From assembly GCA_015228875.1 (NCBI GenBank), contig JADGCS010000001.1, positions 55,886-119,885 on the forward strand: a DNA stretch of 64,000 bases, in the 5' to 3' direction. This DNA comes from Deltaproteobacteria bacterium. Lineage in GTDB: Bacteria > UBA10199 > JADGCS01. Every line of letters starts with the position of its first letter. Position 1 is the first letter of the stretch. A program made the position numbers and the translations under genes. Below are positions 1,769 to 50,747 of this stretch, in pieces. The notes beneath the pieces were generated by a model. The model was not told the origin of the DNA. It searched no databases and was given only the letters and a program-made list of their open reading frames with translations.

Positions 1769-3844
1769 CTACTTACCTGGCTTTTTTTCGATCCTGCAGA
1801 TCTTGGAACACCCGTCACCATTCCTTTGGTTGCCATCGTCACATTCCTCGCTGCCGGCTTTTTTCCCGTTGCCACACCCCTTTGTGCATTGGCTGGGGTT
1901 ATTATAATTGCAGGCATAACCGCTCTCAATGGCGCAGGCTGAACACCCATCACCGCTGACATTTGGTTCTGCAGAATTCATACCATCTATTGCAGAACGT
2001 GACAGTTGGGTGATTGTTTGTGAAGACACATCGAGACCAAAAATTGTAAAGCCTTGCCGACTCGTGCCAGTCCATATTGATGAACCGGAATTAAAAACAA
2101 CCTTGTTACCATCTGATGAGGTTCTTTGATCAAAAGAATGTCCGTTACCCTGAACGCCACTTGCATCCTTGGATACAAGCGAAATGTTATTCCGCACGCG
2201 ATCATAACGAAACAGATCTTTCATTGTTCTGTTGGTGTCAAGTCTGGTCAATCCGGGATCTTCGGACACAAAGACTACATAGCGCCCGTCAAAACTGACT
2301 TGTGGTTTGTTTGATGCTCCTGTTGGCTCCGCCCCGTCGTGTCTCATCGAAATACGCGTGAAAGTACCCCCAACAGCATTTTTTTCGTAAAGAAACACAT
2401 CTAATTTATTATTGTTGTCATTGGGTACAAGATTGGTTGCCTCCGATTCAAAGGCGATAAAGTTACCGTCGTCACTTATGCTGGGATTATCAGATGCCCC
2501 ATTGGCATCTGACCCATCATCACCCTGAGTGATTTTTTGCGTCCTGCCTTCCACAAGATCGTGAATACATATGTTTTTGATGTCATTGATTGTGCAAACA
2601 AAGGCCAGATAGCGGGCATCGGGTGTGATTTGTGGGTTTGTATTTTGCCCAGAAAGGTCAAGGCCCTCACCGTGAAGTTTTATGAGTTGTGCATCGAATG
2701 GGTCGGGGTAGGTCAGCCTTCCAGTGGCGGCACGCTCGTGCGTTACAGAGTCACGACACATGACTTCGTATGCAATGGTCGCGGTATCATCCATTCCGGG
2801 GCTGGTTCTCAAGTTGACGCCAAACCAGCCGTCAAACCATTCGGTCTCTAAAGAAGATCCGGAATGTGTGTAAACCACCTTACAGGATATATTATTTTCT
2901 TTGTTAGTATTTGGTTCAAATCTCAGTTGACCATCGTCCAGCAAATGGACTTTCGTTGAGATAATATGCAAAGGGTTGTCGATGATAATGTGACGATGAA
3001 TAATTGTTTCATTCCCGTAAACATCGGTTACCTTGATGAGAAGGTCTGTTGCTCCATTTTTAAAAAGACGGGTATCAAAGTCAAAATCCCATGCGCCATC
3101 TACAACCCCAGTTACAACAGTGCAAACATGCGATGGATTACAAAGACTGATACGTCTCACCCCTGTGTCATCAAGGGCAACCCCACGGAATGTGACAGTG
3201 CCGCTGATCGTTGAATCTTCTGCGGGAGCGGTCAATGAGACTTGGGGGTTATTCATCACAAAATAGGCAATCCTGTCTTCAAACACAATTCCATCGGGGT
3301 CAGAGGTTCTCAGACGCAATTGATACGACCTGTTTTCTGTGACCGTCGGGACCGTTAATTCCCCCAAGACCCTTTCACCAATCACGGCACTCCCCCCCAG
3401 GCTGCTGATCACAGCGCCAGCGTCGTCAAGCCACTCCAGTGTATAGGGTGTTGGCGCGTCAGCATCCTCTGATCCCACAGAGCCCTCTACACTCAGGGTG
3501 TCTCCAGTGTTCAAGACGATCCCATTATGCGGGGACGTGATCATGACCTCGTAGGGATCCTGAATATCTAAAGCAATATCTGCCTGCACAAGGCCGTAAC
3601 CGTAGTATACATCAAAGCCAGGTGCCCCAAAGTCTGTGCCGCCCAGACGCAATGCCTGTTGCACCTGATCGTTACTGTATTCTGGGTGGGACTCGCGTAT
3701 GAGTGCGGCAATACCGCATACGTGAGGGGTGGCCATGCTTGTGCCGCTTTTCATCTCATAGGAACTACCTGGGATGGTTGATAAGACATCAACACCGGGG
3801 GCTGCCACATCAACGTTGATCCCAAAATTTGAGAAATCCGCGGA
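1769..3844 (-). CDS. S8 subtilase C-terminal fragment in the -1 frame relative to 3751..5112. It carries the catalytic Ser (SGTSMATPHV), PD40/TolB-like beta-propeller repeats and a C-terminal Myxococcus-type Cys-rich repeat.
   Basis: In frame B, upstream of the GTG the tool used, the sequence reads SADFSNFGINVDVAAPGVDVLSTIPGSSYEMKSGTSMATPHV. Repeated DGxxxAFxS units follow. The C-terminus reads ECDDGNQRNGDGCSKIC. Confidence 0.75.
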   Translation of the reverse strand, partial: SADFSNFGINVDVAAPGVDVLSTIPGSSYEMKSGTSMATPHVCGIAALIRESHPEYSNDQVQQALRLGGTDFGAPGFDVYYGYGLVQADIALDIQDPYEVMITSPHNGIVLNTGDTLSVEGSVGSEDADAPTPYTLEWLDDAGAVISSLGGSAVIGERVLGELTVPTVTENRSYQLRLRTSDPDGIVFEDRIAYFVMNNPQVSLTAPAEDSTISGTVTFRGVALDDTGVRRISLCNPSHVCTVVTGVVDGAWDFDFDTRLFKNGATDLLIKVTDVYGNETIIHRHIIIDNPLHIISTKVHLLDDGQLRFEPNTNKENNISCKVVYTHSGSSLETEWFDGWFGVNLRTSPGMDDTATIAYEVMCRDSVTHERAATGRLTYPDPFDAQLIKLHGEGLDLSGQNTNPQITPDARYLAFVCTINDIKNICIHDLVEGRTQKITQGDDGSDANGASDNPSISDDGNFIAFESEATNLVPNDNNNKLDVFLYEKNAVGGTFTRISMRHDGAEPTGASNKPQVSFDGRYVVFVSEDPGLTRLDTNRTMKDLFRYDRVRNNISLVSKDASGVQGNGHSFDQRTSSDGNKVVFNSGSSIWTGTSRQGFTIFGLDVSSQTITQLSRSAIDGMNSAEPNVSGDGCSACAIESGYACNYNNPSQCTKGCGNGKKAGSEECDDGNQRNGDGCSKICRIEKKPGK

Positions 3845-5112
3845 TTATCACCTGACTGTATTGCGGCAACGGTCACAACACCAGCAATGTTGGCAGGGTA
3901 GTAGTTGTAGGTATCAGAGTGATCGTTCCCTGCAGCGGCCACGACCACAGCATCCAGACTGCGCGCAAACGCAATCGCTTCACGCTCAACAAGTGATCCT
4001 TCATACGAGCTAACACGTCCCAGACTTAAATTGATCACATCAGCCCCCATAGTCGCCGCGTAGGTGATTGCCGCAGCAATATCCGAGGAGCGGCCTTTAC
4101 CAATTGATGATAGAGCTCGCACCGGCATGATCTCGCTCCCATGCGCAACACCAACCACACCGATCCCATTATCGCCCACAGCCGCAATGTTCCCTGCAAC
4201 GTGTGTGCCGTGATAATGTTGATCCATCGGGTTGTTATCCGGGCCTTCATCGTTGTAGGTTGTAAAATTGTAACCGTTAACATCATCAATGTAACCGTTT
4301 GCATCATCGTCGATGCCGTTATCGGGGATCTCGCCGGGATTTTGCCAGATATTCTCGCTTAAATCGGGGTGGTTGTAATCAACACCGCTGTCCACAACGG
4401 CAACAACGACGCCAGCCCCGGTGATGCCCTGTGCCCAAGCCTCAGGTGCGTTTACCCTGTCGATTCCCCAGAGTTCCGGCAGGGAGGGGTCATTGGGGAG
4501 GGGGACTGCGGGATCCACCTCATCGAGTGTAATCACCTCGTCAATTGTTACCGACTCCACATCTGGGTCGTTTTTAAGTTCGTTGATGAGATCTGTCACT
4601 GCGGGGTCTGTTTTGTCTTTGCTGATTTTTGCATCAAGCTTCATGACGTAGAAATCAGAGAGACGGGGAGTCTTGTCTGTGGGAGACCCCTTATTTTTAA
4701 GGGTTGGACGCTGTTGCTTGACCTTATTAAACACATCTTGATGCAACAGGCCTTCGGTTTTCCCCGATGTTTTCATTTTTTTTACAAGTCCGGTAAACAC
4801 GGGCCTTGTCTCGCTGATCTTTTTATGCTGATTAAAAAAGGTATCCAGTTTTGAACCTCCTGATTTTTTGATATCACCTCTCTTAAACCGCATTTTGTCT
4901 GCTGATAATCTGTCCTTTAACAGGCCGCCCAACCCAGGGGCACCGGACTTCGCGGGCTTAAATTTGACGATCAGGCGCACAGGTTCTTTTTCTGCATCCG
5001 CCTGTTGATCCAAAAGTGGATCTAAGCCCTTAAACTGGCCCTGCGTGAGGCAGGGGACAAGAAACAGACAGCCAATAAAAACGATCAACGCGATGGATGT
5101 GTTTTTAAACAT
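3751..5112 (-). CDS. Secreted S8 subtilase, N-terminal fragment: signal peptide, propeptide, and the catalytic Asp/His/Asn part
   Basis: Signal peptide MFKNTSIALIVFIGCLFLV. Motifs VAVVDSGVD, HGTHVAGNIAA and AAGNDHSD. The frame ends in out-of-frame residues after ...SGDNPR. Confidence 0.8.
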   Translation of the reverse strand: MFKNTSIALIVFIGCLFLVPCLTQGQFKGLDPLLDQQADAEKEPVRLIVKFKPAKSGAPGLGGLLKDRLSADKMRFKRGDIKKSGGSKLDTFFNQHKKISETRPVFTGLVKKMKTSGKTEGLLHQDVFNKVKQQRPTLKNKGSPTDKTPRLSDFYVMKLDAKISKDKTDPAVTDLINELKNDPDVESVTIDEVITLDEVDPAVPLPNDPSLPELWGIDRVNAPEAWAQGITGAGVVVAVVDSGVDYNHPDLSENIWQNPGEIPDNGIDDDANGYIDDVNGYNFTTYNDEGPDNNPMDQHYHGTHVAGNIAAVGDNGIGVVGVAHGSEIMPVRALSSIGKGRSSDIAAAITYAATMGADVINLSLGRVSSYEGSLVEREAIAFARSLDAVVVAAAGNDHSDTYNYYPANIAGVVTVAAIQSGDNPRISQILGSTLMWQPPVLMSYQPSQVVPMR

Positions 5113-5426
5113 ACAGGAGACCTCATTCGGTTAAGTGTTTAGCTATAGATGAAAGCAATTTTTGTGCCACTGCTTTGTTTTTTTGCTGGAATAACAATAG
5201 GTTACATGTTTGTCGCCCCAAAGACCTGTTATCAAATTGATAAATTATCATATTAGGGGGCAAAATATTGACACCAGAATTGCTGATACAGCTACAAAAT
5301 TAAAGGCTGATGCGACAGTCCAATCCACAGGTACCCTTAAAAAAAAGCAGAAAAACGCCTTTTTTCATACCAAAAAAAACAAAATAATGCCTTTATTCAT
5401 ATTAAAAAAAGCACTATAATAGAGCC

Positions 5427-27543: not shown

Positions 27544-27936
27544 ATGGAGCCTTCTAAGATACTGCTTGTCGATGATGAAAGAGGCTACATCGATAGTCTT
27601 TCGGGGCGCCTTGTGATTCGCGGTTTTGATGTCCGTGGCGTCGAGGATGGTTTTAAAGCCATCGAAGCCCTTAAGGATTTCAGGGCAGATGTCGTCCTGC
27701 TTGATGTGGTCATGCCAGGCAAGGACGGCGTGCAGACGCTCAGGGAGATCAAACAAAATTACCCCAACATTGAAGTCATCATACTCACAGGCAACGCAGA
27801 TGCGCAGACAGCGATTAACGTAATGGAGCTCGGGGCCTTCGACTACCTTCTTAAACCGGTTGGTGTGGATCATCTTGTCTGCAGGCTCAACGATGCCTGC
27901 AAGAAAAAAATGCTGCTCTTAAAAAAAGTGTATTAG
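27544..27936 (+). CDS. Single-domain response regulator (CheY-like receiver)
   Basis: ILLVDDE...VVLLDVVMPGKDG...IILTGNAD...LLKP. Confidence 0.9.
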   Translation: MEPSKILLVDDERGYIDSLSGRLVIRGFDVRGVEDGFKAIEALKDFRADVVLLDVVMPGKDGVQTLREIKQNYPNIEVIILTGNADAQTAINVMELGAFDYLLKPVGVDHLVCRLNDACKKKMLLLKKVY

Positions 27937-28152
27937 CCGTTTGTGTCGAGCGGCAATGCGCTTGAGAACATAACAAGTGTCTGTCGGTAAATGCCCTGTT
28001 TCTTCGGAAGTTTGAAAATTTTGCCGCTTGCAAAATATTTCAAACCCTGAAAAATCATGTCTTTATGTTTTGTCACGGGACATGATTTTTCAGGACTCCT
28101 GCGAAACAGGGCGTTTACCGACAGACACAAACCAAGCCAGCGAGGTACAAAA

Positions 28153-29433
28153 ATGAAAAAAATGAGAAAAGTCTACGACATGATGCTGGAGGCATCAGTG
28201 GCTCATGCAAAATGGGATTACGAGGTCTCTTCCAATATCTTAAAAAGAAAGAGTCGTCTCCTTATCCTTTTTATTCTCCTGCTTCCGATTATACTGGTGT
28301 CCCTTGCGCAGGCAACAGGCAATCTGCCGGTATCTCTCGGCGGAAAGGAAACTTACACACCAGAGTTCTACACAACATCGGTCTTTCTCCTTTCGATTGT
28401 CATCGGTTTTTGTGCCGGACTCATTACGGGCTGTATCGGTGCGGGTGGCGGGTTTATTATTACGCCCGCCCTGATGAGCATTGGGATCAAGGGCATCCTG
28501 GCCGTGGGGACAGATCTTTTTCATATCTTTGCCAAGGCCATTATGGGAACTGTCATTCATAAAAAACTGGGAAATGTCTGCGTGGGACTTGCTGTGGCCT
28601 TTCTGGTTGGTTCCGGTATTGGTGTGGTTGGCGGGGGTGTGATTAACCGTACCTTGTACGAGATCAACCCCATCTTAAGCGATACCTTTATCAGCCTGTT
28701 TTATGTGTTTCTGCTCGGGTTTCTGGGAGTCTATGCCCTGACGGACTTTTTAAGGCTCAGAAAAAAGGGGGAAGATGTCGATGTGCACCGGAGCGGCAGC
28801 TCGCTCAAAGAAAAAGACGGAAGTTTAAAAAAAGCAACCCTCTCTTCAAGGCTTCAGGCCTCCAATATACCGCCCGTTATTAACTTTGATCAGGACCTTG
28901 TCCCTGGTGGTAAAAAAATTCCGGCTCTGTTTGTGGCGATCTGCGGTTCAATAGTGGGTTTTGTGGCCGCGATCATGGGTGTGGGCGGCGGTTTTTTGAC
29001 CTTCCCCATGTTTGTGTACATCCTAGGCGTGTCTTCTTACACAACTGTCGGGACCGACATCACACAGATCATTTTTACGGCCGGTTTCGCCTCGATCACC
29101 CAGTATGCCATTTATGGTTTTATTTTTTATACCTTGGCGATGGGGATGCTGATTGGTTCGCTGGCGGGTATCCAGATCGGGGCGTTGACCACAAAGGTTG
29201 TCCGTGGAATTTATATCCGCGGGTTTTATGCCATGGCCATCCTTGCCGGTTTTTTTAACAGGCTTTTTATCCTGCCCAAAAAACTGGATGAGTTGGGGGT
29301 GATTGCGATCCCCAAGACAATACTGGCAGTCCTCACCCAGTTTGGCACGATCAGTTTTTATATTACCATTGCCATTTTTGCGCTGTGGGTGACGAGCAAG
29401 TTTTTTCTTAATATCAAACAGCTCAGGGCCTAA
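28153..29433 (+). CDS. TSUP (TauE/SafE, DUF81) family membrane transporter, tandem two-domain form, paralog 1
   Basis: Two GxGGG signatures: GCIGAGGGFIITPALMSIG and MGVGGGFLTFPMFVYILG. Multiple transmembrane helices. Confidence 0.7.
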   Translation: MKKMRKVYDMMLEASVAHAKWDYEVSSNILKRKSRLLILFILLLPIILVSLAQATGNLPVSLGGKETYTPEFYTTSVFLLSIVIGFCAGLITGCIGAGGGFIITPALMSIGIKGILAVGTDLFHIFAKAIMGTVIHKKLGNVCVGLAVAFLVGSGIGVVGGGVINRTLYEINPILSDTFISLFYVFLLGFLGVYALTDFLRLRKKGEDVDVHRSGSSLKEKDGSLKKATLSSRLQASNIPPVINFDQDLVPGGKKIPALFVAICGSIVGFVAAIMGVGGGFLTFPMFVYILGVSSYTTVGTDITQIIFTAGFASITQYAIYGFIFYTLAMGMLIGSLAGIQIGALTTKVVRGIYIRGFYAMAILAGFFNRLFILPKKLDELGVIAIPKTILAVLTQFGTISFYITIAIFALWVTSKFFLNIKQLRA

Positions 29434-29554
29434 AGCTGGTTCTTTCTATGCCCCGAAGGAAATCCCCTTGGGGGAGGTGCGGTTTAACGTCAATATATGA
29501 TAGTCAGCCCGCGTGGTATTTTAGGACCGATGCGGGGTATGGAGGATAAGCAAA

Positions 29555-30256
29555 ATGATTATTGTAAACAAAAAAACTTTTTATACCGGTTTCTTTATGG
29601 CTGTTGTCTTTGTTTGTGTCCTTGTGGGCATGTTTATGCCTTTGTTCGAGGGAAAAAACGCCTTTGAGTCCGCTGATGACCTGTTTAATTCACTTTCCAA
29701 GGGCTCAACGTATTATATACCCGGTGTTGAGAAGGAGGTCCGGGCTATGGGGCACCAGCCCATCACTTCCGAACAAAAAACCACCGACACAGCAGACACA
29801 CTCAAGGTGTTGACCACAAACAATATACAGGTTGTTCCATCGGGCGATAAGATCAGTGTGACGGGAAACCTCGACGATATCATCAGCGTCGCACTTGGTG
29901 ATGCAGACTTAATGTTTAAAAATGACGGGGACGCGATTGTAAAAAAGTACGGTATTCCCGAGGCAAAAAGGGTGGTCTACATTTGGTGGCATGTATTGAC
30001 CGGTCTCGAAAAATCCCTCGAAAAGGCAGAACGCTTTAAAGAGGCGGCCATGACAAAAAAGGCCAAGGCACGGGGGATAGAGGTTGCCTACAATTTTTTC
30101 GCAATTAATTCACAGGATATCTCGCAGAAGTGGGGGATTCTTTTATTCTCACTGATATTCTATGTGTGCTACACACTGTGGTGGGGTTATGCCATTTTTT
30201 ATCTCGTAGATGGTGTGGGACTCAAACTCAAACCGGGCATGAAAAAAGAGGCGTAA
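29555..30256 (+). CDS. Hypothetical membrane protein
   Basis: N- and C-terminal transmembrane helices. The gene sits between TSUP-1 and the ppsA-like gene with 8-bp spacing. Confidence 0.45.
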   Translation: MIIVNKKTFYTGFFMAVVFVCVLVGMFMPLFEGKNAFESADDLFNSLSKGSTYYIPGVEKEVRAMGHQPITSEQKTTDTADTLKVLTTNNIQVVPSGDKISVTGNLDDIISVALGDADLMFKNDGDAIVKKYGIPEAKRVVYIWWHVLTGLEKSLEKAERFKEAAMTKKAKARGIEVAYNFFAINSQDISQKWGILLFSLIFYVCYTLWWGYAIFYLVDGVGLKLKPGMKKEA

Positions 30257-30263
30257 CGCCGTT

Positions 30264-32864
30264 ATGGGGCCCAAAAAACCGTTTTTTTCCTTCGTAAAAA
30301 AAAAACCTCAAAAAAATACAGAAGAGCTTCGTCACGAGTTTAAAAAGAGATATCATCATTTTAAACTCCTGCTTCTTGCAAACAGCAATGCCCTCAATGC
30401 CATGACGGAGATGGAAGAGGCCCATCAGGGGGAACGCCCGTTAAGACTCAGTTTCATCAGGTCAAGATGCACGACCATTGCCACTAATGTTTATCTGATG
30501 ATCAAAAATCTCAATGCCCTGTCTGGTGACAAATACACCAGGCTGTATGAAAAATTTAAGGAGATTCAATCCAGCATCTCGCCCTTTCTGGTTCGTCATG
30601 AGCCTCTTAAAGACCAGCCCTTGATTCTCTCCATGGAGAAACTCAATAAAACTCTTGCGGATCACTCGGGAAACAAAATGGCAAATCTCGGTGAGATCAG
30701 AAGCAGACTTGGTATTGCTGTTCCCGAAGGTTTTGTTGTGACCTCAAGGGCCTATCGTGCTTTCATGGATGACACAGGTCTCAAGTCCGCCATATACGAG
30801 TCTTTGCAAATGGCGGAGGCAGAATCCTTTGAGGACTACGACAATCTGTGCCGTGAAATCAGGCGAGTTGTTCTAAAGACTGATCTCCCTGATGCGCTAA
30901 AAAACGCCATCACCGAAGGGTATTCTGCCGTCGAAAAGAAACTGGTGGCAGGCGTGCCTGTTGCCATGAGAAGCTCTTCTTCACTGCCTGAACTGGCAGG
31001 ACGCTCCTTTGCGGGGCAGTACCACACTGTACTTGGTGTGACACAAGAGCATCTCTTTCAGGCATACAAGGAGGTCGTTGCGAGCAAATATTCACTGCCG
31101 GCGATGATGTACAGGATCAACCGCGGTATTCGTGAAGACGATGTCACAATGTGCGTCGGCTGCATGGCCATGGTGAGCGCAGAAGCGGGCGGGGTGGCCT
31201 ATTCAAAAAATCCTGTAGATGCACAGGATGACAATGTGATGATTCATTCGGTCTTTGGACACCCCAAGTGTATCATGGACGGGACTGACACAGCGGATTT
31301 GTTGGTTGTGACGAGAGAAACACCGCTGAGAATTGTCAAGAGGGACATCCCTTTAAAAACAAGGGAAATCAAATTTAACCCCGCGGGTCTTTTGTCCGAA
31401 GTGGGGATCAATGAGGAGCGTGGGCTTAAGGCCTCGCTATCCGATGAAAAGGCGCTTGAACTCGCTGCGCTTGTCCTTAAGATTGAGGATTATTACAAGA
31501 CAGCGCAGGATGTAGAGTGGGTATTGACAAGAGAGGGAAAAATTATTGTCGTGCAGTGTCGCCCCATTGTGCAAATCAGTCTTAAGGACCCCGTCAATAT
31601 TGAGGAGGATGATCATACAAGGCCGCACGGGATTCTTATGTCGGGTGGCAGCACAGCAAGTCCGGGCATTGCATCTGGTCCGGTCTTTGTGGCGAGAAAA
31701 GAAAAAGATATCCTTAATTTCCCCCAAGGGGCGGTTCTGGTTGCGGAGCAGTCCCTGCCTTACTGGGCCATTGTATTAAACAGGGCCTCCGCGGTCATTG
31801 CCGAGTCGGGCAATATCGCGGGGCATCTGGCCACTGTCGCCAGGGAATTTAATGTCCCGGCCCTTTTTGGATTAAAGGACGCCACAAAAATCTTGAAGAA
31901 CGGGGAGGCGATCACTGTTGACGCGGACCGCAGGCAGGTCTGTGAAGGCAAGATTGAAAGGGAGTCTTTAAACAGACTTAAAGAATCACAAGAGGTTTCT
32001 CAGCGGAGATATTATAAAAGCACCCCCGTTTATGCAGCCCTGTGTGGCGCGATACAGCACATCACCCCACTGCATCTGCTTGACCCCGATGCCATCGATT
32101 TTGTCCCCGAAAAATGCACGACCTTTCATGACATCACGCGATTTTGTCACGAAAAGGCATCAAACGGGATGTTTGAAACAGGGACTGACAAGGAGTTTAC
32201 AGAGTATCAGAGCAGGCAGCTTGTCTGCGACATCCCGATGCAGTTCTGGGTCATTGATCTTGACGACGGCTTTCGCGAAAGACCCGCAGACAACAACTTT
32301 GTCAAATTTGAAAATATCGTGTCGATTCCCATGCTGGCGATCTGGGCCGGGATGACGGCGATTCCATGGAAAGGCTCCCCGCCTGTTAATTTAAAGGGTT
32401 TCATGTCTGTTATTTTGGGATCAATGGGCGACACGTCACTCGATCCCTCTATGCCCTCAAGGTATGCGATAAAAAATTATTTTATGGTCTCCAAAAATTA
32501 CTGCAGCCTTCAGTCAAGATTTGGTTATCATTTTTCTTCTACCGAGGCTATTATCGGCGAAAATGCCTTTGAGAACTACATTCATTTTCGATTTAAGGGG
32601 GGTGCTGCCGACCGTCGTCAAAGGGTCGACCGTGCGAGACTGATCGCCAGCGTACTCGAAGAGATGGGCTTTCATACCGTGCTTAGAGGAGATTCGGTGG
32701 ATGCCAGAATGAAGGGGCACGATCCCATCTTTACCGAGTCACGATTAAGGATCATCGGCTATTTAACCATCCACACAAGACAACTCGACATGGTGATGGA
32801 GGGAGAAGAATCAATCCAGATCTACAAGGACAAGATTATTGCGGATGTTTTAAAACTGGTCTGA
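30264..32864 (+). CDS. PEP-utilising-enzyme family protein: PpsA-like ATP-grasp domain plus swivel phospho-histidine domain, with an unrecognised C-terminal domain
   Basis: KMANLGEIRSRLGIAVPEGFVVTSRAY (PPDK_N-like), central SGNIAGHLATVAREFNVPALFG (mobile His domain). No PEP-binding TIM-barrel motifs were seen. Confidence 0.65.
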   Translation: MGPKKPFFSFVKKKPQKNTEELRHEFKKRYHHFKLLLLANSNALNAMTEMEEAHQGERPLRLSFIRSRCTTIATNVYLMIKNLNALSGDKYTRLYEKFKEIQSSISPFLVRHEPLKDQPLILSMEKLNKTLADHSGNKMANLGEIRSRLGIAVPEGFVVTSRAYRAFMDDTGLKSAIYESLQMAEAESFEDYDNLCREIRRVVLKTDLPDALKNAITEGYSAVEKKLVAGVPVAMRSSSSLPELAGRSFAGQYHTVLGVTQEHLFQAYKEVVASKYSLPAMMYRINRGIREDDVTMCVGCMAMVSAEAGGVAYSKNPVDAQDDNVMIHSVFGHPKCIMDGTDTADLLVVTRETPLRIVKRDIPLKTREIKFNPAGLLSEVGINEERGLKASLSDEKALELAALVLKIEDYYKTAQDVEWVLTREGKIIVVQCRPIVQISLKDPVNIEEDDHTRPHGILMSGGSTASPGIASGPVFVARKEKDILNFPQGAVLVAEQSLPYWAIVLNRASAVIAESGNIAGHLATVAREFNVPALFGLKDATKILKNGEAITVDADRRQVCEGKIERESLNRLKESQEVSQRRYYKSTPVYAALCGAIQHITPLHLLDPDAIDFVPEKCTTFHDITRFCHEKASNGMFETGTDKEFTEYQSRQLVCDIPMQFWVIDLDDGFRERPADNNFVKFENIVSIPMLAIWAGMTAIPWKGSPPVNLKGFMSVILGSMGDTSLDPSMPSRYAIKNYFMVSKNYCSLQSRFGYHFSSTEAIIGENAFENYIHFRFKGGAADRRQRVDRARLIASVLEEMGFHTVLRGDSVDARMKGHDPIFTESRLRIIGYLTIHTRQLDMVMEGEESIQIYKDKIIADVLKLV

Positions 32865-33438
32865 GACCACTCGTAATCCCCAAAAAATCAAGAAGTTTGT
32901 TTTTAAATCTGATTGTGAAGGCTGGCTTTGGTCCCTCGGGGTCTGTGGGAGGGGTGTGCAGTATTTTGTTGTCACGCGCATCGCTTAATCTTGCGATCAA
33001 ACAGTCCATGTTGATGGGTTTAAGGAGATAAGCAAAGGCCCCTGATTCGAGAATGCGAATAGACAAATCCATATCTGCATGAGCGGTGAGGACAATAATT
33101 TCACACAAGGGGTGCCTTTTTTTGATTTGCTGAATGCAGTAGATGTCCTCAGCGTTGGGGGCCTGTGTGTCAAGCAGGATTACATCGGCCTTAAAAGTGG
33201 CCAGCGCTGCCAAAAGATCCTCCCGGCATGAAACACCCACTGTGTCAAGGTTTCTTGCCTTAAAGATTTTGATCATCCTTTCCCTGTAGTAATCGACATC
33301 GTTAACAAACAACACCCTGGTGCGTTCTGCATAAATCGCGTCACGCGTGCGTGGGTGATCCAAAGACACACCCTTTCGATCAGACACCCCCTCTCTAATC
33401 AAGGCGGGGTAATAACTGATGACACTGTGAAAGCTCAT
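32836..33438 (-). CDS. Response-regulator receiver-domain protein
   Basis: VLFVNDVD...VILLDTQAP...IIVLTAHAD...YLLKP. Confidence 0.7.
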   Translation of the reverse strand: MSFHSVISYYPALIREGVSDRKGVSLDHPRTRDAIYAERTRVLFVNDVDYYRERMIKIFKARNLDTVGVSCREDLLAALATFKADVILLDTQAPNAEDIYCIQQIKKRHPLCEIIVLTAHADMDLSIRILESGAFAYLLKPINMDCLIARLSDARDNKILHTPPTDPEGPKPAFTIRFKNKLLDFLGITSGLRPVLKHPQ

Positions 33439-33609
33439 AAAAATTCATTATGCAATGAGCATGCCAAAATCAGTGGGGTCCGCATTTGTTCTATCTTGTT
33501 GAAAAAAGAGACTTATTTATTAACAGCTGTTTTTGAATGCGGTGACAAACAGGACGGTAGCGTCAGATTTTTTTACAGGTTGTAAAGAACATGTGAGGGA
33601 CTTGATGTA

Positions 33610-33700: not shown

Positions 33701-35131
33701 CTACCCGACCGTTGAGCGCACCTTGAGATTGTATTTTTCGATCTTGGCCTGAAGCGTTGGTCTTGTGAGCCCCAGAAGTTTGGCGGCATTGGTCCTGTTG
33801 CCATCAGTCAATTTGAGGGCTTCAGCGATAATGATTTTGCCGAACTGGTCCATTAAAGAATCAAACTTGCCATCTTGGGTCGTCGCATCGAACATGTGAC
33901 GAACAAGCTGTTGCACACTGCATTCGGGGTCGCTCATAAATTCATTGGGTGTCTTTGTGTTTTTTTTGCACAGGATAACCTGCCGCAGGTCCTTGACCTC
34001 AACGGGGGCGCCTTGAGAGAAGATCAGAACCCTTTGAATGGTGTTTTGCAGTTCCCTGACATTGCCTGGCCAGTTGTATTCTAAGAGCATGGCAACGGCA
34101 TCTTCAGTCAGGCCTGGATTGGGTTTGCCGTTTTGTGCCGAGAAAAAACTCATGAAATAATCGGTGAGCAGAGGGATATCTCCCTGACGGTCGCGTAAAG
34201 GCGGGACATTAAGGGTGACAACTTTAAGTCTGTAATAGAGATCCTCCCTGAAACTTCCCTCCGCAAGAGCCGCTTCAAGATTGCGATTGGTCATGGCCAC
34301 AATTCTCACGTCGACAGGAATGGTCTCTCTGCCGCCGAGTCTTTCGATGCATTTTTCCTGCAGGAGTCTTAAAATCTTTGCCTGAATATTTGCCGGCATA
34401 TCGCCGATTTCATCGAGGAGTACGGTTCCCTTGTTTGCCTGTTCAATCTTCCCCAGTTTTCTGCTGACGGCGCCAGTAAAGGCGCCTTTTTCGTATCCAA
34501 AAAGCTCGCTTTCGAGCAGGGTGTCGGGGATAGCCACGCAGTTGATGACGACAAAAGGTTTGTTGGATCGTTCGCTGTGCTGATAAATGGCTCTGGCCAC
34601 GAGTTCCTTGCCTGTGCCAGTCTCGCCGCGCACAAGCACTGTGGCATCGTTGGGTGCAACATGCCCGATTTCTTTGTAGAGCTTTTGCATAACCTTGCTT
34701 TGTCCTACAATGACATCGGACTTTGTCCCATCGGCAATGATATTCATGTCTATTCTTTTTCTCATGAACTGGCCCGACTTAATGGCGTCTTTGATGAGTT
34801 CAAGGATCTCCGGGATATCAAATGGTTTAAAGATGTAATCAAATGCCCCCATCTTGGTCGCTTCGATGGCCATATCTGTGGTTCCGTACGCAGTCATGAT
34901 GATCAATGGGAGTTTGGGATCGATATCGTGAATGATCAAAAAAGCGTCATACCCACTCATGCCAGGCATTTTGATATCCATCAAGACAAGGTCGGGAGAG
35001 CGGGACTCAACCAGATTGATGCCCTCCTGCCCGGTCTGTGCAATGATGACGTTATAGCCCTCAGCGATCAGAATTTTTTTAAAACTCTTGAGAAGCTGCA
35101 GATCATCATCGACTATGAGAATGGTTTCCAT
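33701..35131 (-). CDS. Sigma-54-dependent transcriptional activator (NtrC family response regulator)
   Basis: Receiver domain, AAA+ domain with GETGTGKELVARAIY and GAFTGA, and a C-terminal Fis-type HTH. Confidence 0.93.
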   Translation of the reverse strand: METILIVDDDLQLLKSFKKILIAEGYNVIIAQTGQEGINLVESRSPDLVLMDIKMPGMSGYDAFLIIHDIDPKLPLIIMTAYGTTDMAIEATKMGAFDYIFKPFDIPEILELIKDAIKSGQFMRKRIDMNIIADGTKSDVIVGQSKVMQKLYKEIGHVAPNDATVLVRGETGTGKELVARAIYQHSERSNKPFVVINCVAIPDTLLESELFGYEKGAFTGAVSRKLGKIEQANKGTVLLDEIGDMPANIQAKILRLLQEKCIERLGGRETIPVDVRIVAMTNRNLEAALAEGSFREDLYYRLKVVTLNVPPLRDRQGDIPLLTDYFMSFFSAQNGKPNPGLTEDAVAMLLEYNWPGNVRELQNTIQRVLIFSQGAPVEVKDLRQVILCKKNTKTPNEFMSDPECSVQQLVRHMFDATTQDGKFDSLMDQFGKIIIAEALKLTDGNRTNAAKLLGLTRPTLQAKIEKYNLKVRSTVG

Positions 35132-36597
35132 TATTTTTCCTCACATGGCAAAGAGATCACAAAGGTTGTTCCTTTGTTGTTTTCGGAGATGACGTGTATC
35201 TTTCCCCCGTGTTCATTGATGATCCTGACGGCAATACTCAGACCAAGACCAGTGCCGTCATCCTTTGTGCTAAAAAACGGCTGAAATATTTTTTCCTGAA
35301 CAGCCCTTGGTATGCCTGGTCCGTTATCTGCGATGCTGATGACAACGGCCCGGCCTATCGATGCATTTGTTTCAAGGTGTTCGGTAATCTCAATCCTGCC
35401 TTCTTTGACCATGGCCTCGCAGGCGTTGGTGATGATGTTGACAAGAACTTCTATCAGTTGATCTGGATCGGCCCAAATATCGGGGGATTTGTCTTTTCTG
35501 TTGATGATGACTTCTACGTTATACAATTTTAAGCGATGGTGCAGGAGTTGCAAGGTGGAGTCGACAATAGATGACGGGCTGATCTTTTTTTGCTTGAGTT
35601 TGGGTGGTCTGGCAAACTCGACAAAGTTATTGATCACGCTGTCGATGTGTCTGACCTCTTCTGAAATAACGTCAAGGTCCTCCTTCTGATCCCCTGTAAG
35701 AGCTTTGTGTCTCTGCATGGAAAAAAGTCTCATTTTAACGGATGTCAGGGGGTTGCGAACGCTGTGAGCCACACCGGCAGCCAGTTTTCCAACCTCAATC
35801 CATTTCTCTGATTTTTGCAGTATCTCGTGACTTAATTCGAGTTCGATCTTGGTCTTGTCGGCGTTTTCTATCAGGGTGTGTACACTTCTGCTTAATGTCT
35901 TGACCTCGTCGGACGGGTGCGATTCGGCGGGCGCGGCGTGGGCGTCGAATGTCAGCTGGCGTATGGGTTCGAGGATAAAATTAAGCAGGATATAACCAAG
36001 CAGTGCAGTAAAGAAGATCATCAGGCTCATCGTGACAAGGACAAAGGTATTGACAATATTTGCCTTGTGGTAATTTTTTTTGATGGCCTCGTTGATAATG
36101 CGTTGATGCAGTTCCTTGTAAGCCTCACACGATTTTTGAATTTCAAAGAATTTGCCGCGGACATCCTGATGAAGCCTGGCGCCGGCTTCTTTTTCGCCCC
36201 TTTGATACATTGTGATCACCTTGCTCTTTGAGTCAGAATATTTCTGGTATTCCACCCTGATGGTATCAAGCAGTTTTTTTTCTGGTTCGCCCTCGCTGAA
36301 TTGATTGGCCTCGGCCAGTTTTGTATCAAAGAGGTTCTGATATTTTTTGAGTTGGTCAAGCCATGCCGGGTTTCCATCAAGAAAAAAATAACTAACGTAG
36401 CCTTTTTGCATGGCGAGCGCGTTATCAAATTCGTGAGCCGAATTAAGGGCCTTGGTACTCCTGTCTATGATATTTTTTAGGGAGCCATCGACCTGATGAA
36501 TGTACCAGATGGTCACTACAGCCCCTGTGATGGCCATGATCATGATGAAAAGGAGAATGATCAGGATCCTTGTACGCAAACTCAGTTTGAAAAACAT
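35131..36597 (-). CDS. Sensor histidine kinase (partner of the NtrC-like regulator)
   Basis: N-terminal TM/HAMP region, H-box AAGVAHSVRNPLTSV, and ATPase NGPGIP...GTGLGLSIA. Confidence 0.9.
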   Translation of the reverse strand: MFFKLSLRTRILIILLFIMIMAITGAVVTIWYIHQVDGSLKNIIDRSTKALNSAHEFDNALAMQKGYVSYFFLDGNPAWLDQLKKYQNLFDTKLAEANQFSEGEPEKKLLDTIRVEYQKYSDSKSKVITMYQRGEKEAGARLHQDVRGKFFEIQKSCEAYKELHQRIINEAIKKNYHKANIVNTFVLVTMSLMIFFTALLGYILLNFILEPIRQLTFDAHAAPAESHPSDEVKTLSRSVHTLIENADKTKIELELSHEILQKSEKWIEVGKLAAGVAHSVRNPLTSVKMRLFSMQRHKALTGDQKEDLDVISEEVRHIDSVINNFVEFARPPKLKQKKISPSSIVDSTLQLLHHRLKLYNVEVIINRKDKSPDIWADPDQLIEVLVNIITNACEAMVKEGRIEITEHLETNASIGRAVVISIADNGPGIPRAVQEKIFQPFFSTKDDGTGLGLSIAVRIINEHGGKIHVISENNKGTTFVISLPCEEK

Positions 36598-36761
36598 AAT
36601 TCTTGATGTGTTGCTGCCCCTTAACGTGGCAACAAATATTTTTTACAACCTGTAAAAAAAAATGGCAACAAGCAGCTGAGTCAGGTGTCTCATATGACAG
36701 CCAGAGAGAAATTATACACTCATTTCAGTAAGATATTGCCCCATGCAGGTCATGCCTTTTC

Positions 36762-36777
36762 TGGCACACTTGTTGCT
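36762..36777 (+). promoter_or_regulatory. Sigma-54 (-24/-12) promoter TGGCAC-N5-TTGCT
   Basis: ctGGCACacttgTTGCTata matches the consensus with correct GG/GC spacing. It lies 70-90 bp upstream of the small-TM/TSUP-2 operon and is divergent from the NtrC/HK pair. Confidence 0.7.
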
Positions 36778-36780
36778 ATA

Positions 36781-36810
36781 AGATCAAGTAGGATCAAGTA
36801 GGATCAAGTG
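36781..36810 (+). repeat. 3x tandem 10-bp repeat (a/g)GATCAAGTA, followed by a gaagc-tgcttc hairpin, in the 5' leader
   Basis: agatcaagta ggatcaagta ggatcaagtg read directly. Confidence 0.8.
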
Positions 36811-36849
36811 GAAGCTGCTTCAAATTTCTTAGATAGAAAGGACGTTATT

Positions 36850-37020
36850 ATGGGAACTATCATCAACTGGATGACCGAGTTAAATTCATCTGATCGCCTG
36901 ATGTTTGGTGTTTTGACTGTGTTTACAATGGCTGGTCTCGGGATTTCAATTGCCATCATCGCAGAATTATTCTTCAGGGCTCTTGGTATCAAGTGTGACA
37001 AGATTGAAATTCAGCACTGA
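36850..37020 (+). CDS. Small (56 aa) single-pass membrane protein
   Basis: AAAGGA RBS, then ATG MGTIINW... and hydrophobic FGVLTVFTMAGLGISIAIIAELFF. It immediately precedes TSUP-2. Confidence 0.45.
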   Translation: MGTIINWMTELNSSDRLMFGVLTVFTMAGLGISIAIIAELFFRALGIKCDKIEIQH

Positions 37021-37087: not shown

Positions 37088-38299
37088 ATGGATCTTTATT
37101 TACCTATAGCCGGTGTTGAGATCGCCGCATGGCAGCTTGTGTTGCTTGGTCTCACCGTTGGTGTGATCGGTGGTTTTTTTGGAATTGGCGGGGCCTTTAT
37201 GGTCACGCCAGCCCTTAACGTATTTGGTTTTCCGATGGCCTATGCCATCGGCACAGACATGGCGCACATCGCGGGTAAATCGATTGTGGCCACGGCCAAA
37301 CATCGCAAACTCGGTAATGTAGATTTAAGGCTGGGCATCCTGATGGTTATTTTTACGGCAATAGGCATCGAGGGGGGCGCAACGCTTATCATGTGGCTTG
37401 AAAAGATCGGCAGAGTAGGCCCCATTGTGCGTATTGTTTACATGGTTCTTCTTTTTGGACTTGGTTCCTACATGATGTACGAGTATTTCAAACTGACTCG
37501 TGGGGCGATGAGCAGCGGGGCTCATGATGCCAAGACATCAGGTCTGGCCCTCAGGATGCAGAGCCTTAAACTCAAACCCATGATCACTCTTAAAACGTCC
37601 GGTGTTCAAATTTCTCTATGGGTTATTGCGGTTGTTGCCACCTTCACGGGATTTCTTGCGGGTTTTCTGGGTGTCGGCGGCGGTTTTATCAGGATGCCCT
37701 CCCTCATCTACGTTATCGGCTGCCCAACTACGGTAGCCGTTGGCACAGATCTATTTGAGGTCATGATCTCCGGCGCATACGGCGCCTTCTCTTATGCCTA
37801 CAAGGGCCGCGTGGAGATTGTTGCAGCGATTGTCATGCTGCTTGGTGCGGCACTGGGAGCGCAGTTTGGGACTGTGGCCACAAAATACGTCAAGGGACTC
37901 ACCATACGGCTCTATTTTGCTGTGACCATGCTGCTTGCCGGTGTGTCTGTTATTTTTAAACACATTGCCTCCCACTACAAAAATATGTACGAGCCGTCGC
38001 TTATTGCATGGGCAAAGAGCACAAGTGGTTTGTCCGACAAAGTAGAGGTCAAGGACTGGATCATGATGCACAAACCTGCTGTGCAGAGTTGGGTCACTCA
38101 ACAATCCGATATCTTGCAAAGTGCCTACGTCCTGGATAAGTCCTGGAACAACTATTCTGGCTATCTGATGCTGGGTGCGGCCTGTGCCTTGAGCGCCCTG
38201 ATTATCATTAAAATGATCAGGGGTGTCATTTACGAGCGACGTCTTAATGGCTCGAAGATGCCTCTGGGGCGACAGGTAAACGTCGCAACAGCTGAATAA
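37088..38299 (+). CDS. TSUP (TauE/SafE) family membrane transporter, tandem two-domain form, paralog 2
   Basis: GGFFGIGGAFMVTPALNVFG and LGVGGGFIRMPSLIYVIG. A strong GGAGGA RBS precedes the start. Confidence 0.7.
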   Translation: MDLYLPIAGVEIAAWQLVLLGLTVGVIGGFFGIGGAFMVTPALNVFGFPMAYAIGTDMAHIAGKSIVATAKHRKLGNVDLRLGILMVIFTAIGIEGGATLIMWLEKIGRVGPIVRIVYMVLLFGLGSYMMYEYFKLTRGAMSSGAHDAKTSGLALRMQSLKLKPMITLKTSGVQISLWVIAVVATFTGFLAGFLGVGGGFIRMPSLIYVIGCPTTVAVGTDLFEVMISGAYGAFSYAYKGRVEIVAAIVMLLGAALGAQFGTVATKYVKGLTIRLYFAVTMLLAGVSVIFKHIASHYKNMYEPSLIAWAKSTSGLSDKVEVKDWIMMHKPAVQSWVTQQSDILQSAYVLDKSWNNYSGYLMLGAACALSALIIIKMIRGVIYERRLNGSKMPLGRQVNVATAE

Positions 38300-38429: not shown

Positions 38430-39239
38430 ATGTCTATAGTCACCATCTCAAGGGGGTCGCATTGTTACGGTACAGAGATAGCCGAAAAGGTTGCCCGCAA
38501 ACTGGGATTTGAGTGTATCTCCAGAGAGATCCTGCTCGATGCCTCAAGGGATTATCATGTCCCAGAGGTCAAGCTCATCAAGGCCATTCACGATTCACCG
38601 TCTTTTCTTGACCGATTAACCCTTGGTAAAAAGAGATACATCACCTACATCCAGACAGAACTGCTTAAACACTTAAACAGGGACAATATTGTTTATCACG
38701 GCCTGGCCGGGCATTTTTTTGTGAGGGACATCAGTCATGTGCTCAAGGTGAGGGTCATCGCCGATCACGAAGACCGGATCAAGCTCGTCATGGGGCGCGA
38801 TCATGTCTCCGAAAAAGAGGCTGTTAAACTGCTCGAAAGGGACGATGCAGAACGCAAAAAATGGGGGCTTGCCCTGTACAACATCGACACAACAGATCCT
38901 TCATTGTATGATCTCGTGTTGCGTATCCGTAAATTCTCTGTCGATGACGCCGTCGACATAATCTGTCGATCTGTTCAATTAAAACAATTTCAGACCACTG
39001 CCGATTCAAAACAAAAACTCGCGGATATCCTGCTTGCCTCACGTGTCAGGTCTATCCTGATTGATATTGCAGCTATCAGAGATATATCAGCGGCAGAGGG
39101 TGTCGTCTATGTCTCCCTTGAGGGACACGCGCTTCAACTGGATGAATTGCATACCCTGATCAGAAAAAAAATCTTTGATGAGGTTGGCTTTTCAGAGGTC
39201 AAATTTGAATCGATCATCACCGGCGGTCTCGCAGATTAA
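38430..39239 (+). CDS. Cytidylate-kinase-like family P-loop protein
   Basis: IVTISRGSHCYGTEIAEKVARKLGF is a (d)CMP-kinase-like N-terminus. An AAGGAG RBS is present. Confidence 0.55.
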   Translation: MSIVTISRGSHCYGTEIAEKVARKLGFECISREILLDASRDYHVPEVKLIKAIHDSPSFLDRLTLGKKRYITYIQTELLKHLNRDNIVYHGLAGHFFVRDISHVLKVRVIADHEDRIKLVMGRDHVSEKEAVKLLERDDAERKKWGLALYNIDTTDPSLYDLVLRIRKFSVDDAVDIICRSVQLKQFQTTADSKQKLADILLASRVRSILIDIAAIRDISAAEGVVYVSLEGHALQLDELHTLIRKKIFDEVGFSEVKFESIITGGLAD

Positions 39240-48801: not shown

Positions 48802-50037
48802 ATGGCACAAATCAACAGTCATTATTTAAAACTCAAATCAGGTTATTTGTTTCCAGAGATTGGTCGCAGGGTGAGCGAATTTGCTCAAAAAAATCCTGCA
48901 GCCCGTCTCATCCGTCTTGGTATTGGTGATGTGACACGGCCGCTCCCCGATGCTGTGGTCAAAGCGGGCAAGGCTGCCTTTGACGAGCTGTCACGGGCCG
49001 AGACATTCAGGGGCTATGGTCCAGAAAAGGGCTATGAGTTTTTAAGACGGGCCATTGCAGAAAACGATTTTAAACCCCGTGGGGTTGTTGTTGATCCAGA
49101 AGAGATCTTTATCTCCGACGCCTCCAAGTGCGACACGGCCAACATGCAGGAGCTCTTTGATCAAAACTGCAGGGTGGCGATTCCCGATCCTGTCTACCCC
49201 GTCTATGTCGATACCAATGTGATGGCGGGCAGGACAGGCAGTGCAGACGGGCAGGGGAGGTACGAGGGGCTTCATTATCTTTCATCGGGTCCTGAGAGCG
49301 GTTTTCTTCCCCAAATTCCCCGAGAAAGATTCGACATCGTCTACCTTTGTTTTCCAAACAACCCAACGGGCGTTGTCGCCACAAAGGACGAGCTTAAAAG
49401 ATGGGTCGATTACGCACGGGCAAACGAGGCCGTTATTTTTTTTGACGCGGCCTACGAGGCTTACATCACCGATGAGCACATCCCTCATTCTATTTTCGAA
49501 ATCGAGGGGGCCAGCGAATGCGCAGTTGAATTCCGCTCATTCTCCAAAACTGCGGGTTTTACCGGCACGCGGTGCGCCTTTACGGTGGTCCCGCGGGCGT
49601 TGATGTGCCGCAATAGCCGCGGGGAAAAGGTTGCGCTTCACGCCCTGTGGCACAGGCGTCAGTCTACAAAGTTTAACGGTGTGAGTTACCCCGTTCAAAG
49701 GGCGGCGGAGGCCTGCTACTCGGACGAGGGTAAAAAAGAGATCAGGGAGTTGATCGCTTATTACATGGAAAATGCCAAGTTCATTCACCAAACCCTTTCA
49801 AAGATGGGGTTTGCGGTCTACGGGGCCATCAACGCGCCTTACATCTGGCTTAAAACACCACACGACACAGATTCGTGGGGTTTCTTTAACGAGCTTTTGC
49901 ACAAGGCCCATGTGGTTGGCACGCCCGGGGCCGGTTTTGGGGCCTGCGGCGAGGGGTATTTAAGGCTCTCCTCATTTGGCTCGCGTGCGGACATCGCAGA
50001 GGCCATGGAGCGGATCAGACAGATTTATGATATTTAA
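48802..50037 (+). CDS. dapL: LL-diaminopimelate aminotransferase
   Basis: N-terminus [20 protein letters not shown] is characteristic of DapL. Class I aminotransferase fold with [15 protein letters not shown]. Confidence 0.85.
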
Positions 50038-50038
50038 A

Positions 50039-50095
50039 TATATCATGTGATATTTTAAAATATCATACGATATTTGACAATAACATATGATATAT
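50039..50095 (+). promoter_or_regulatory. Three spaced ATATC-N4-GATAT palindromes, a candidate operator upstream of the HTH-MNT gene
   Basis: atatcatgtgatat, atatcatacgatat and atatgatatat lie within 60 bp in front of ORF 50124. Confidence 0.5.
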
Positions 50096-50123: not shown

Positions 50124-50747
50124 ATGCAGTTTCGCAATCACCTCATCAACTTACTTGCCGACCCTGTCAAAATACGTGTGTATCAAGCATTATCTCTCCA
50201 CACTGTCGGCTTGACCGGCAGGGCACTGGGCCAGATCGTTGAAACCTCGCCTTTTAAGATCAATCAGGTCCTGAAATATCTGGTTGAACAGGGGCTTGTT
50301 ATCCAAACCGTCCTGGGGAAGGCCCATCGCTACAGCCTCAACCTCGAACACGTCTTTATCAAAAGTGCCATGATGGCTCTGCTCAAGTCTGAGAAAGACA
50401 TTTTAAAAAACATGGGGCGCATGATGACCAACAGGCTCTCCCCAAAGCCTCTGGCCATTATCCTTTACGGGAGTGTCGCGCGGGGAGACGAGGGGGCGAG
50501 GAGCGATCTGGACCTCCTTGTTGTCTTTGGAGACCGGCCCCCTTCTTCGAAGGTACTCATAAAAAAGTTTGAAGACATCCCCCTTATGTACGGCAATTTC
50601 CCGTCGATCACATGTGTTGGACTGTCTGACTTTCTGTCGCCAGACAGTGCCCACCAGGCGTTGATGAGGCACATTAAAAAAGAGGGTAAAAGCATTGCGG
50701 GTTTATCAGTCACTGCATTAATAAGCAAATATGGTCACAAAAGTTAA
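50124..50747 (+). CDS. Minimal nucleotidyltransferase (MNT) with N-terminal winged-helix DNA-binding domain
   Basis: LYGSVARGDEGARSDLDLLVVF matches the GS-x9-DxD nucleotidyltransferase motif. Confidence 0.7.
   Translation: MQFRNHLINLLADPVKIRVYQALSLHTVGLTGRALGQIVETSPFKINQVLKYLVEQGLVIQTVLGKAHRYSLNLEHVFIKSAMMALLKSEKDILKNMGRMMTNRLSPKPLAIILYGSVARGDEGARSDLDLLVVFGDRPPSSKVLIKKFEDIPLMYGNFPSITCVGLSDFLSPDSAHQALMRHIKKEGKSIAGLSVTALISKYGHKS

Follow-up and report, generated by a model that had tools for sequence, protein, structure and literature searches.

A predicted sigma-54-dependent TSUP permease operon beside its putative NtrC-type activator, with a probable and likely neutral decamer triplication at the predicted start site

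Within the window, i.e., the whole 64,000-nt stretch of DNA that was analysed, a gap of 252 bp lies between the start of a sensor histidine kinase gene on the reverse strand (36597) and the ATG at 36850 of an operon on the forward strand. This gap houses a putative sigma-54 promoter, three tandem decamers, and a short palindrome. The first gene of the operon (36850..37020, +) encodes a 56-aa membrane protein that is distantly related to the DVU0150 family, and it is followed by a gene for a TSUP/TauE-family permease of 403 aa (37088..38299, +; Pfam PF01925, E = 1.5e-42). The last gene of the operon (38430..39239, +) encodes a cytidylate-kinase-like protein (Pfam PF13189, E = 9e-41), and the gene after it is convergent. 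The small open reading frame (ORF) is real: more than 60 loci, which belong to several phyla, conserve it directly 5' of TauE at 40-64% identity, and its homologues share the Met start, which they place behind a strong ribosome-binding site. In the window, a Shine-Dalgarno-like AAAGGAC, as read from the sequence, stands at 36837..36843 (+), 7 nt 5' of the ATG. A GTG-started version of 70 aa, which would overlap the decamers, is not supported, as the homologues start at the equivalent of ATG 36850 instead; the decamers are therefore non-coding. The 56-aa protein matches only the C-terminal half of the NCBIfam profile NF040783 (DVU0150_fam; E = 1.6e-5), with 25.2 bits against a cutoff of 70, and had no match in the local copy of Pfam; its homologues carry PF28216, weakly.

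The divergent operon encodes a two-component system, namely, a histidine kinase (35131..36597, -) for which the domain search returned a 4HB_MCP (four-helix-bundle) sensor, HisKA, and HATPase, and an NtrC-type enhancer-binding response regulator (33701..35131, -) with a receiver, an AAA+ sigma-54 interaction domain (PF00158, E = 2.8e-71), and a Fis-type helix-turn-helix (HTH_8). The GAFTGA loop of this activator is intact (around 34486), and its gene is 1.6 kb away from the promoter. No curated NCBIfam equivalog was matched by the activator above its cutoff. Kinase orthologues (41-51% identity) always have the activator gene behind them, and activator orthologues are 56-69% identical, with a near-invariant helix-turn-helix (GNRSxAAKLLGLSRPTL). 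Neither an RpoN-box protein nor rpoN is encoded within the 64-kb window, and that the genome has sigma-54 is an assumption made on account of the activator. The permease is 70-85% identical to many Nitrospirota proteins. Its nearest relatives (80-85%) are from that phylum, whereas those of the kinase and the activator are from Thermodesulfobacteriota and reach only about 50% and 60%, respectively. As their nearest relatives thus lie in different phyla, the sequences suggest that the transporter module may have been acquired or shuffled independently of its regulators.

The candidate promoter, TGGCACacttgTTGCT (36762..36777, +), matches the sigma-54 consensus exactly, with TGGCAC at 36762-36767, ACTTG as the N5 spacer, and TTGCT at 36773-36777; the -24 GG (36763-64) and the -12 GC (36775-76) are 10 nt apart. 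The preliminary description of this DNA had reported this element with this spacing, and it was read in the sequence just so. It is intergenic, points toward the operon, and stands 73 nt before ATG 36850 of the conserved ORF. Exact matches to TGGCAC-N5-TTGCW were observed twice in the 64 kb against 0.12 expected, a count that 0 of 100 shuffles reached. The only other exact match (5154-5169, -) precedes an ORF at 3751-5112 (-), in an intergenic region that also holds an A-rich tandem repeat of a 32-nt unit in 2.5 copies (5340-5420). Counted from the -12 C at 36776, transcription is predicted to start at about 36787-36789. The divergent placement of the NtrC-like activator and kinase genes is likewise as described earlier, except for the distance: 165 bp, and not 200 bp, separate the promoter from the kinase start codon (36597).

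The preliminary description had located the upstream activator sequence (UAS) somewhere within 36598-36760, and it can now be placed at 36642-36658, by a duplicate site in the window and by conservation in orthologous loci. This predicted site of the adjacent activator is the palindrome TTTACAaccTGTAAAAA, i.e., TTTACA-acc-TGTAAA, adjoined by an A-run, and the full inverted repeat around it (TTTTTTACA/TGTAAAAAA, 36639-36659) has 9-nt arms that are 100% complementary. It begins exactly 120 nt upstream of the sigma-54 promoter. The core, TTACNNNNTGTAAA, has only two matches in the window against 0.09 expected. The second copy, TTTACAACCTGTAAAAA (33570..33586, -), is an identical 17-mer. It precedes a second sigma-54-like promoter, TGGCATgctcaTTGCA (33451..33466, -), at the same distance of 120 nt as counted from its start, and both promoter regions align in register. 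This second promoter is just 3' of the activator gene and 5' of a receiver-only response regulator ORF (32836-33438). Transcription from it is predicted to start at about 33440, which leaves just 2 nt up to the listed ATG (33438), so that the receiver-only ORF probably has its true start further downstream, e.g., at an in-frame TTG after AAAGGG. No match to the IHF consensus WATCAANNNNTTR with up to one mismatch was found between UAS and promoter at either of the two promoters, which leaves any DNA bending there unexplained.

Two other repeats occur near the UAS. The inverted repeat TGTTGC-N14-GCAACA (36609-36634), which is followed by a T-run and is 12 nt away from the start of the kinase gene on the opposite strand, was considered as the activator site and rejected, as it was not found in orthologous loci. 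The direct repeat TGGCAACAA (36627-36635 and 36663-36671) flanks the UAS and is also absent from orthologous loci. Both are possibly involved in the control of the kinase operon.

A metagenome scan with the kinase alignment yielded 80 loci, most of which hold the same kinase-activator pair (kinase 41-49% and activator 56-69% identical to the window proteins). In the orthologous loci, a sigma-54 promoter is typically present 3' of the activator gene, and the palindrome TTTTACA-N3-TGTAAAA, often continued by N6-8-GACA, is found 111-148 nt, mostly 121-126 nt, upstream of sigma-54 promoters. Of the 43 loci with sufficient flanking sequence, 20 show the pairing of UAS and promoter under a strict pattern, and further loci fit it with one mismatch or bear the pair upstream of the kinase. 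The Thermodesulfobacteriota metagenome loci with this signature fall in the range L081-L151 (among them L090, 6580/6703; L107, 6505/6653; and L127, 6377/6581). Genes under the signature encode CBS-domain proteins, universal stress proteins, receiver-only regulators, a 190-aa membrane protein with TauE, and a PEP-synthase-like protein. In the window itself, 27544-33438 is one functional cluster, with a receiver-only regulator (27544-27936), a second TSUP gene (28057-29433), a 233-aa ORF, a PEP-synthase/PPDK-like gene of 866 aa (30264-32864), and the convergent receiver ORF. Genes of the PPDK-like and cytidylate-kinase-like types are found repeatedly beside orthologous kinase/activator pairs (e.g., L100, L127, L146).

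On these grounds, the sigma-54 promoter reading is strongly supported, and the comparison with related loci provides good evidence for control of the promoter by the adjacent activator via the UAS, since this site is twinned at the second promoter and conserved by the orthologous pairs. The earlier characterization of the region as a classical enhancer-dependent arrangement is borne out, with an adjacent activator that has a GAFTGA loop and a UAS 120 nt upstream of the promoter. It could be argued that the consensus match is fortuitous or inactive and that the operon is transcribed from another promoter, as rpoN was not seen in the window and the start site is a predicted one. This is extremely improbable given that the match is exact and rare, that there is a conserved UAS at the canonical distance, with a duplicate at the second promoter, and that related operons are known to depend on sigma-54. 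A sigma-70-type promoter had been named beforehand as the competitor that would speak against the call, and the scan upstream of the 56-aa ORF found no sigma-70-like site.

The architecture resembles the glnAp2/NtrC paradigm in its -24 GG/-12 GC elements, in the palindromic activator site about 100-150 bp upstream, and in a response-regulator activator with AAA+ GAFTGA and Fis-type HTH that is encoded beside both its kinase and its target. It would differ from the paradigm in signal and physiological role, with a four-helix-bundle sensor in the kinase of the window and with a TSUP permease, a small membrane protein, and kinase-like proteins as targets, and it also differs in its UAS, which is TTTACA-N3-TGTAAA and not an NtrC site. 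In Desulfovibrio vulgaris Hildenborough, the DVU0150-DVU0146 operon depends on sigma-54 and runs divergently to the gene of its activator DVU0151 (Kazakov et al. 2015, PMC4641369). In the same species, the activators DVU0110/DVUA0057 bind and control the TSUP operon DVU0132-0133 (PMC4641369). The common element is a small DVU0150-type protein and/or a TSUP permease behind a sigma-54 promoter that is divergent from, or adjoins, the gene of an enhancer-binding protein. However, DVU0151 is a one-component activator with a winged-helix-like domain and no Fis HTH, whereas the activator of the window is a two-component regulator with a receiver and a Fis HTH (HTH_8); moreover, the small protein of the window is a distant, sub-threshold DVU0150 relative, and its TauE is closest to Nitrospirota.

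The Nitrospirota operons of the type GntR/UTRA-small ORF-TauE (L001, L079, L160, L164, and others) contain the same pair of genes, at 64% and 80-85% identity, and have a sigma-54-type promoter upstream as well. In these operons the GntR/UTRA gene stands between the promoter and the small ORF, whereas the window lacks GntR and has the module directly behind a canonical promoter. Their promoter is TGGCAC-N5-TTG[T/A/G], and their UAS is a TGCAAT-type palindrome. A -12 element of TTGA, TTGT, or TTGG, not TTGC, was seen in the Nitrospirota small-ORF/TauE loci L002-L010, L023, L045, and L067, and in L001, L079, L160, and L164; palindromes of the type TGCAAT-N5-ATTGCA lie upstream of sigma-54-like promoters in Nitrospirota small-ORF/TauE loci. 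In magnetotactic Nitrospirota, TGGCAY-N5-TTGA is found about 95 nt before the small ORF. Sigma-54 control of the small-ORF/TSUP module is thus a recurring and already described theme, to which the window adds a different activator and a different UAS.

Just downstream of the promoter, the three tandem decamers and the palindrome that had been described earlier were all recovered in place. The decamer array, (A/G)GATCAAGT(A/G) in perfect copies, spans 36780..36809 (+), and consists of the units AGATCAAGTA (36781-90), GGATCAAGTA (36791-800), and GGATCAAGTG (36801-10), the third of which ends in G and not in A. Tandem Repeats Finder (TRF) called its core at 36782-36809 (unit GATCAAGTAG, period 10, 2.8 copies, 100% identity, score 56). 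As this is the longest perfect tandem in the window (period of at least 5, at least 2.5 copies), the duplication is real and does not stem from chance. Another, longer-period repeat lies elsewhere in the window, at 50026-50093, where a 20-nt unit occurs in 3.4 copies, each resembling the palindrome TGATATTTnAAATATCA, in the intergenic region before the ORF at 50124-50747; it looks like an operator array.

The decamer array starts 3 nt after TTGCT and covers about -8 to +22 of the predicted start, so that two full units would be transcribed. The UAS and the two promoter elements are all upstream of it, and the conserved start codon comes after it. Because it is downstream of the -12 element and non-coding, its copy number can alter only the length of the 5' untranslated region, and not the promoter geometry.

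No tandem repeat was present in any of the 29 orthologous leaders or at the second promoter of the window (31 promoters including this one), and the rest of the window shows no enrichment of the decamer motif (7 matches vs. 4.3 expected). Relatives of the leader were searched for in 77 genome loci, obtained with the TauE alignment, and in the 80 metagenome loci obtained with the kinase alignment; the contigs of the five nearest TauE relatives were looked up as well, as were exact copies of the small ORF (56 and 70 aa) and the TauE of the window. A homologous leader was found in none of the 77 genome loci, 80 metagenome loci, and 8 contig look-ups, and the exact look-ups of the small ORF in both versions and of TauE had nothing on record. 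The nearest kinase in the collections is just 51% identical, and the nearest TauE (80-85%) occurs in the GntR-small ORF-TauE arrangement. Two faint resemblances were set aside, namely, I) a proposed homology of the leader to the GntR 3' end/Shine-Dalgarno region of Nitrospirota operons, where a 12-nt identity with L012 (TTAGATAGAAAG) is embedded in an overall alignment that is unconvincing, and II) a GATCAAG-like motif in the TauE-operon leaders L107, L127, and L141, where the likeness is loose, tandem repeats are missing, and chance was taken as the explanation.

In keeping with the perfect copies, the array most likely goes back to a recent slipped-strand triplication, specific to this lineage, of 10 nt across the start site. 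Three perfect copies, one helical turn apart, each with GATC and GGA and located on the start site, could nevertheless be functional, and several such functions were considered. The array may serve as an operator, on which a direct-repeat binder (e.g., a winged-helix regulator or repressor) occupies -8 to +22 and modulates or blocks the promoter, adding a second input. The 10-bp spacing of three perfect copies right over the predicted start, in what is the longest perfect tandem of the window, fits such a role, as does an imperfect dyad that pairs CACTTG of the promoter spacer with CAAGTG at the array end. An operator is quite unlikely, though: neither the second promoter nor the 29 orthologous leaders have a like motif, and the decamer motif is not enriched in the rest of the 64 kb; no candidate regulator gene is adjacent, and the nearby response regulators are devoid of DNA-binding domains; and recent duplication explains the perfect identity more simply.

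The preliminary description had also raised phase variation of leader length. Promoter-spacer or leader repeats are known from simple-sequence-repeat contingency loci, e.g., in Neisseria, Haemophilus, and Mycoplasma, which the perfect repeat of the window resembles in form only, as it has few copies, a long unit, and a non-coding position downstream of the promoter elements. Differential GATC methylation is known from the agn43/OxyR switch of E. coli, and each decamer contains a GATC, so that either slippage or differential methylation of three GATC on one helical face may be imagined to create ON/OFF heterogeneity. This is highly improbable. Copy number alters neither the -24/-12 nor the UAS spacing, the array is 3' of the -12 element and non-coding, and three copies of a 10-nt unit (2.8 as scored) are a poor substrate for slippage; the suggested phase variation is therefore only weakly founded. 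As for a GATC/Dam signal, it was discarded, because GATC is common and unbiased in the window (418 sites, observed/expected 0.94) and clusters of it are frequent, as three GATC fall within 40 nt in 15 other runs. CTAG is strongly depleted in the window (10 observed vs. 28 expected, ratio 0.36), whereas GATC is not.

A further alternative places the function of the repeats in the RNA, where a CsrA/RsmA-type protein would bind the GGA motifs of the leader, three of them in or beside the repeats, and thereby repress the translation of the small ORF. The leader of about 62 nt contains four GGA, in AGGA at 36790-93 and 36800-03, UGGA at 36809-12, and AGGA of the Shine-Dalgarno at 36839-42, and their spacing is compatible with binding by a CsrA dimer. 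Yet two of the four are owed solely to the duplication, the GGA are not in stable hairpin loops, no csrA was found within the window, and the orthologous leaders have no comparable pattern, all of which make translational repression of this kind very improbable.

No significant fold was obtained for the leader RNA. The palindrome GAAGC-t-GCTTC (36811..36821, +), whose complement AAGCAGCT also occurs at 36670-36677, had been regarded as a hairpin. As it has a one-base centre, its RNA stem could have at most 4 bp with a 3-nt loop. The minimum free energy of the leader, -11.2 kcal/mol, does not surpass that of shuffles, which average -13.4 (z = +0.75), and no terminator-like site was called at 36811-36830 under criteria of a G+C-rich stem of at least 5 bp, a loop of 3-8 nt, and a U-run. 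The palindrome is too weak for an RNA hairpin or a terminator, and the supposed hairpin does not hold up as a meaningful structure. A structured RNA or riboswitch in the leader was dismissed as well, given the fold and the lack of an Rfam match at E <= 10.

The operator, methylation, and CsrA-type readings can also be combined into one scenario, in which the array is a second control layer (an operator for a repressor or roadblock, a methylation switch, or a CsrA-type site) that was acquired when a Nitrospirota-type small-ORF/TauE module lost GntR and came behind this promoter. We regard this scenario as unlikely. The decamer array is unusual in its form and lacks support for a function, and most likely it has no dedicated regulatory role, a neutrality that we infer from purely negative evidence.

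The reading that is preferred, and that we hold to be probable as a whole, is that of a sigma-54 operon (56-aa protein, TSUP permease, and cytidylate-kinase-like protein) under the control of the adjacent activator, with the decamers as a neutral recent triplication. According to this model, the divergently encoded histidine kinase would phosphorylate the NtrC-type activator, which would bind TTTACA-N3-TGTAAA at 36642-36658, 120 nt upstream of the TGGCAC -24 element. The bound activator, presumably this one, would contact RNA polymerase-sigma-54 at TGGCAC-N5-TTGCT (36762-36777) and drive open-complex formation, and transcription would start near 36788. The same activator would drive the second promoter (33466-33451, -) via an identical site that is likewise 120 nt away. 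The decamer triplication would add 20 nt to the 5' untranslated leader.

The decamer repeat would matter only if it were an operator or an RNA site, and no result points that way. The wider meaning of the locus lies in the regulatory system, i.e., a kinase with an NtrC-type activator that is widespread among sulfate-reducer-type Thermodesulfobacteriota. An otherwise uncharacterised two-component system is hereby linked to the motif TTTTACA-N3-TGTAAAA, located about 120 nt upstream of sigma-54 promoters, and to recurring targets, namely, the genes of a TSUP permease and its accompanying small membrane protein, of universal-stress and CBS-domain proteins, of receiver-only regulators, and of a PEP-synthase-like kinase. 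While the practical gain is modest, the motif and the target set together make up a directly testable regulon.
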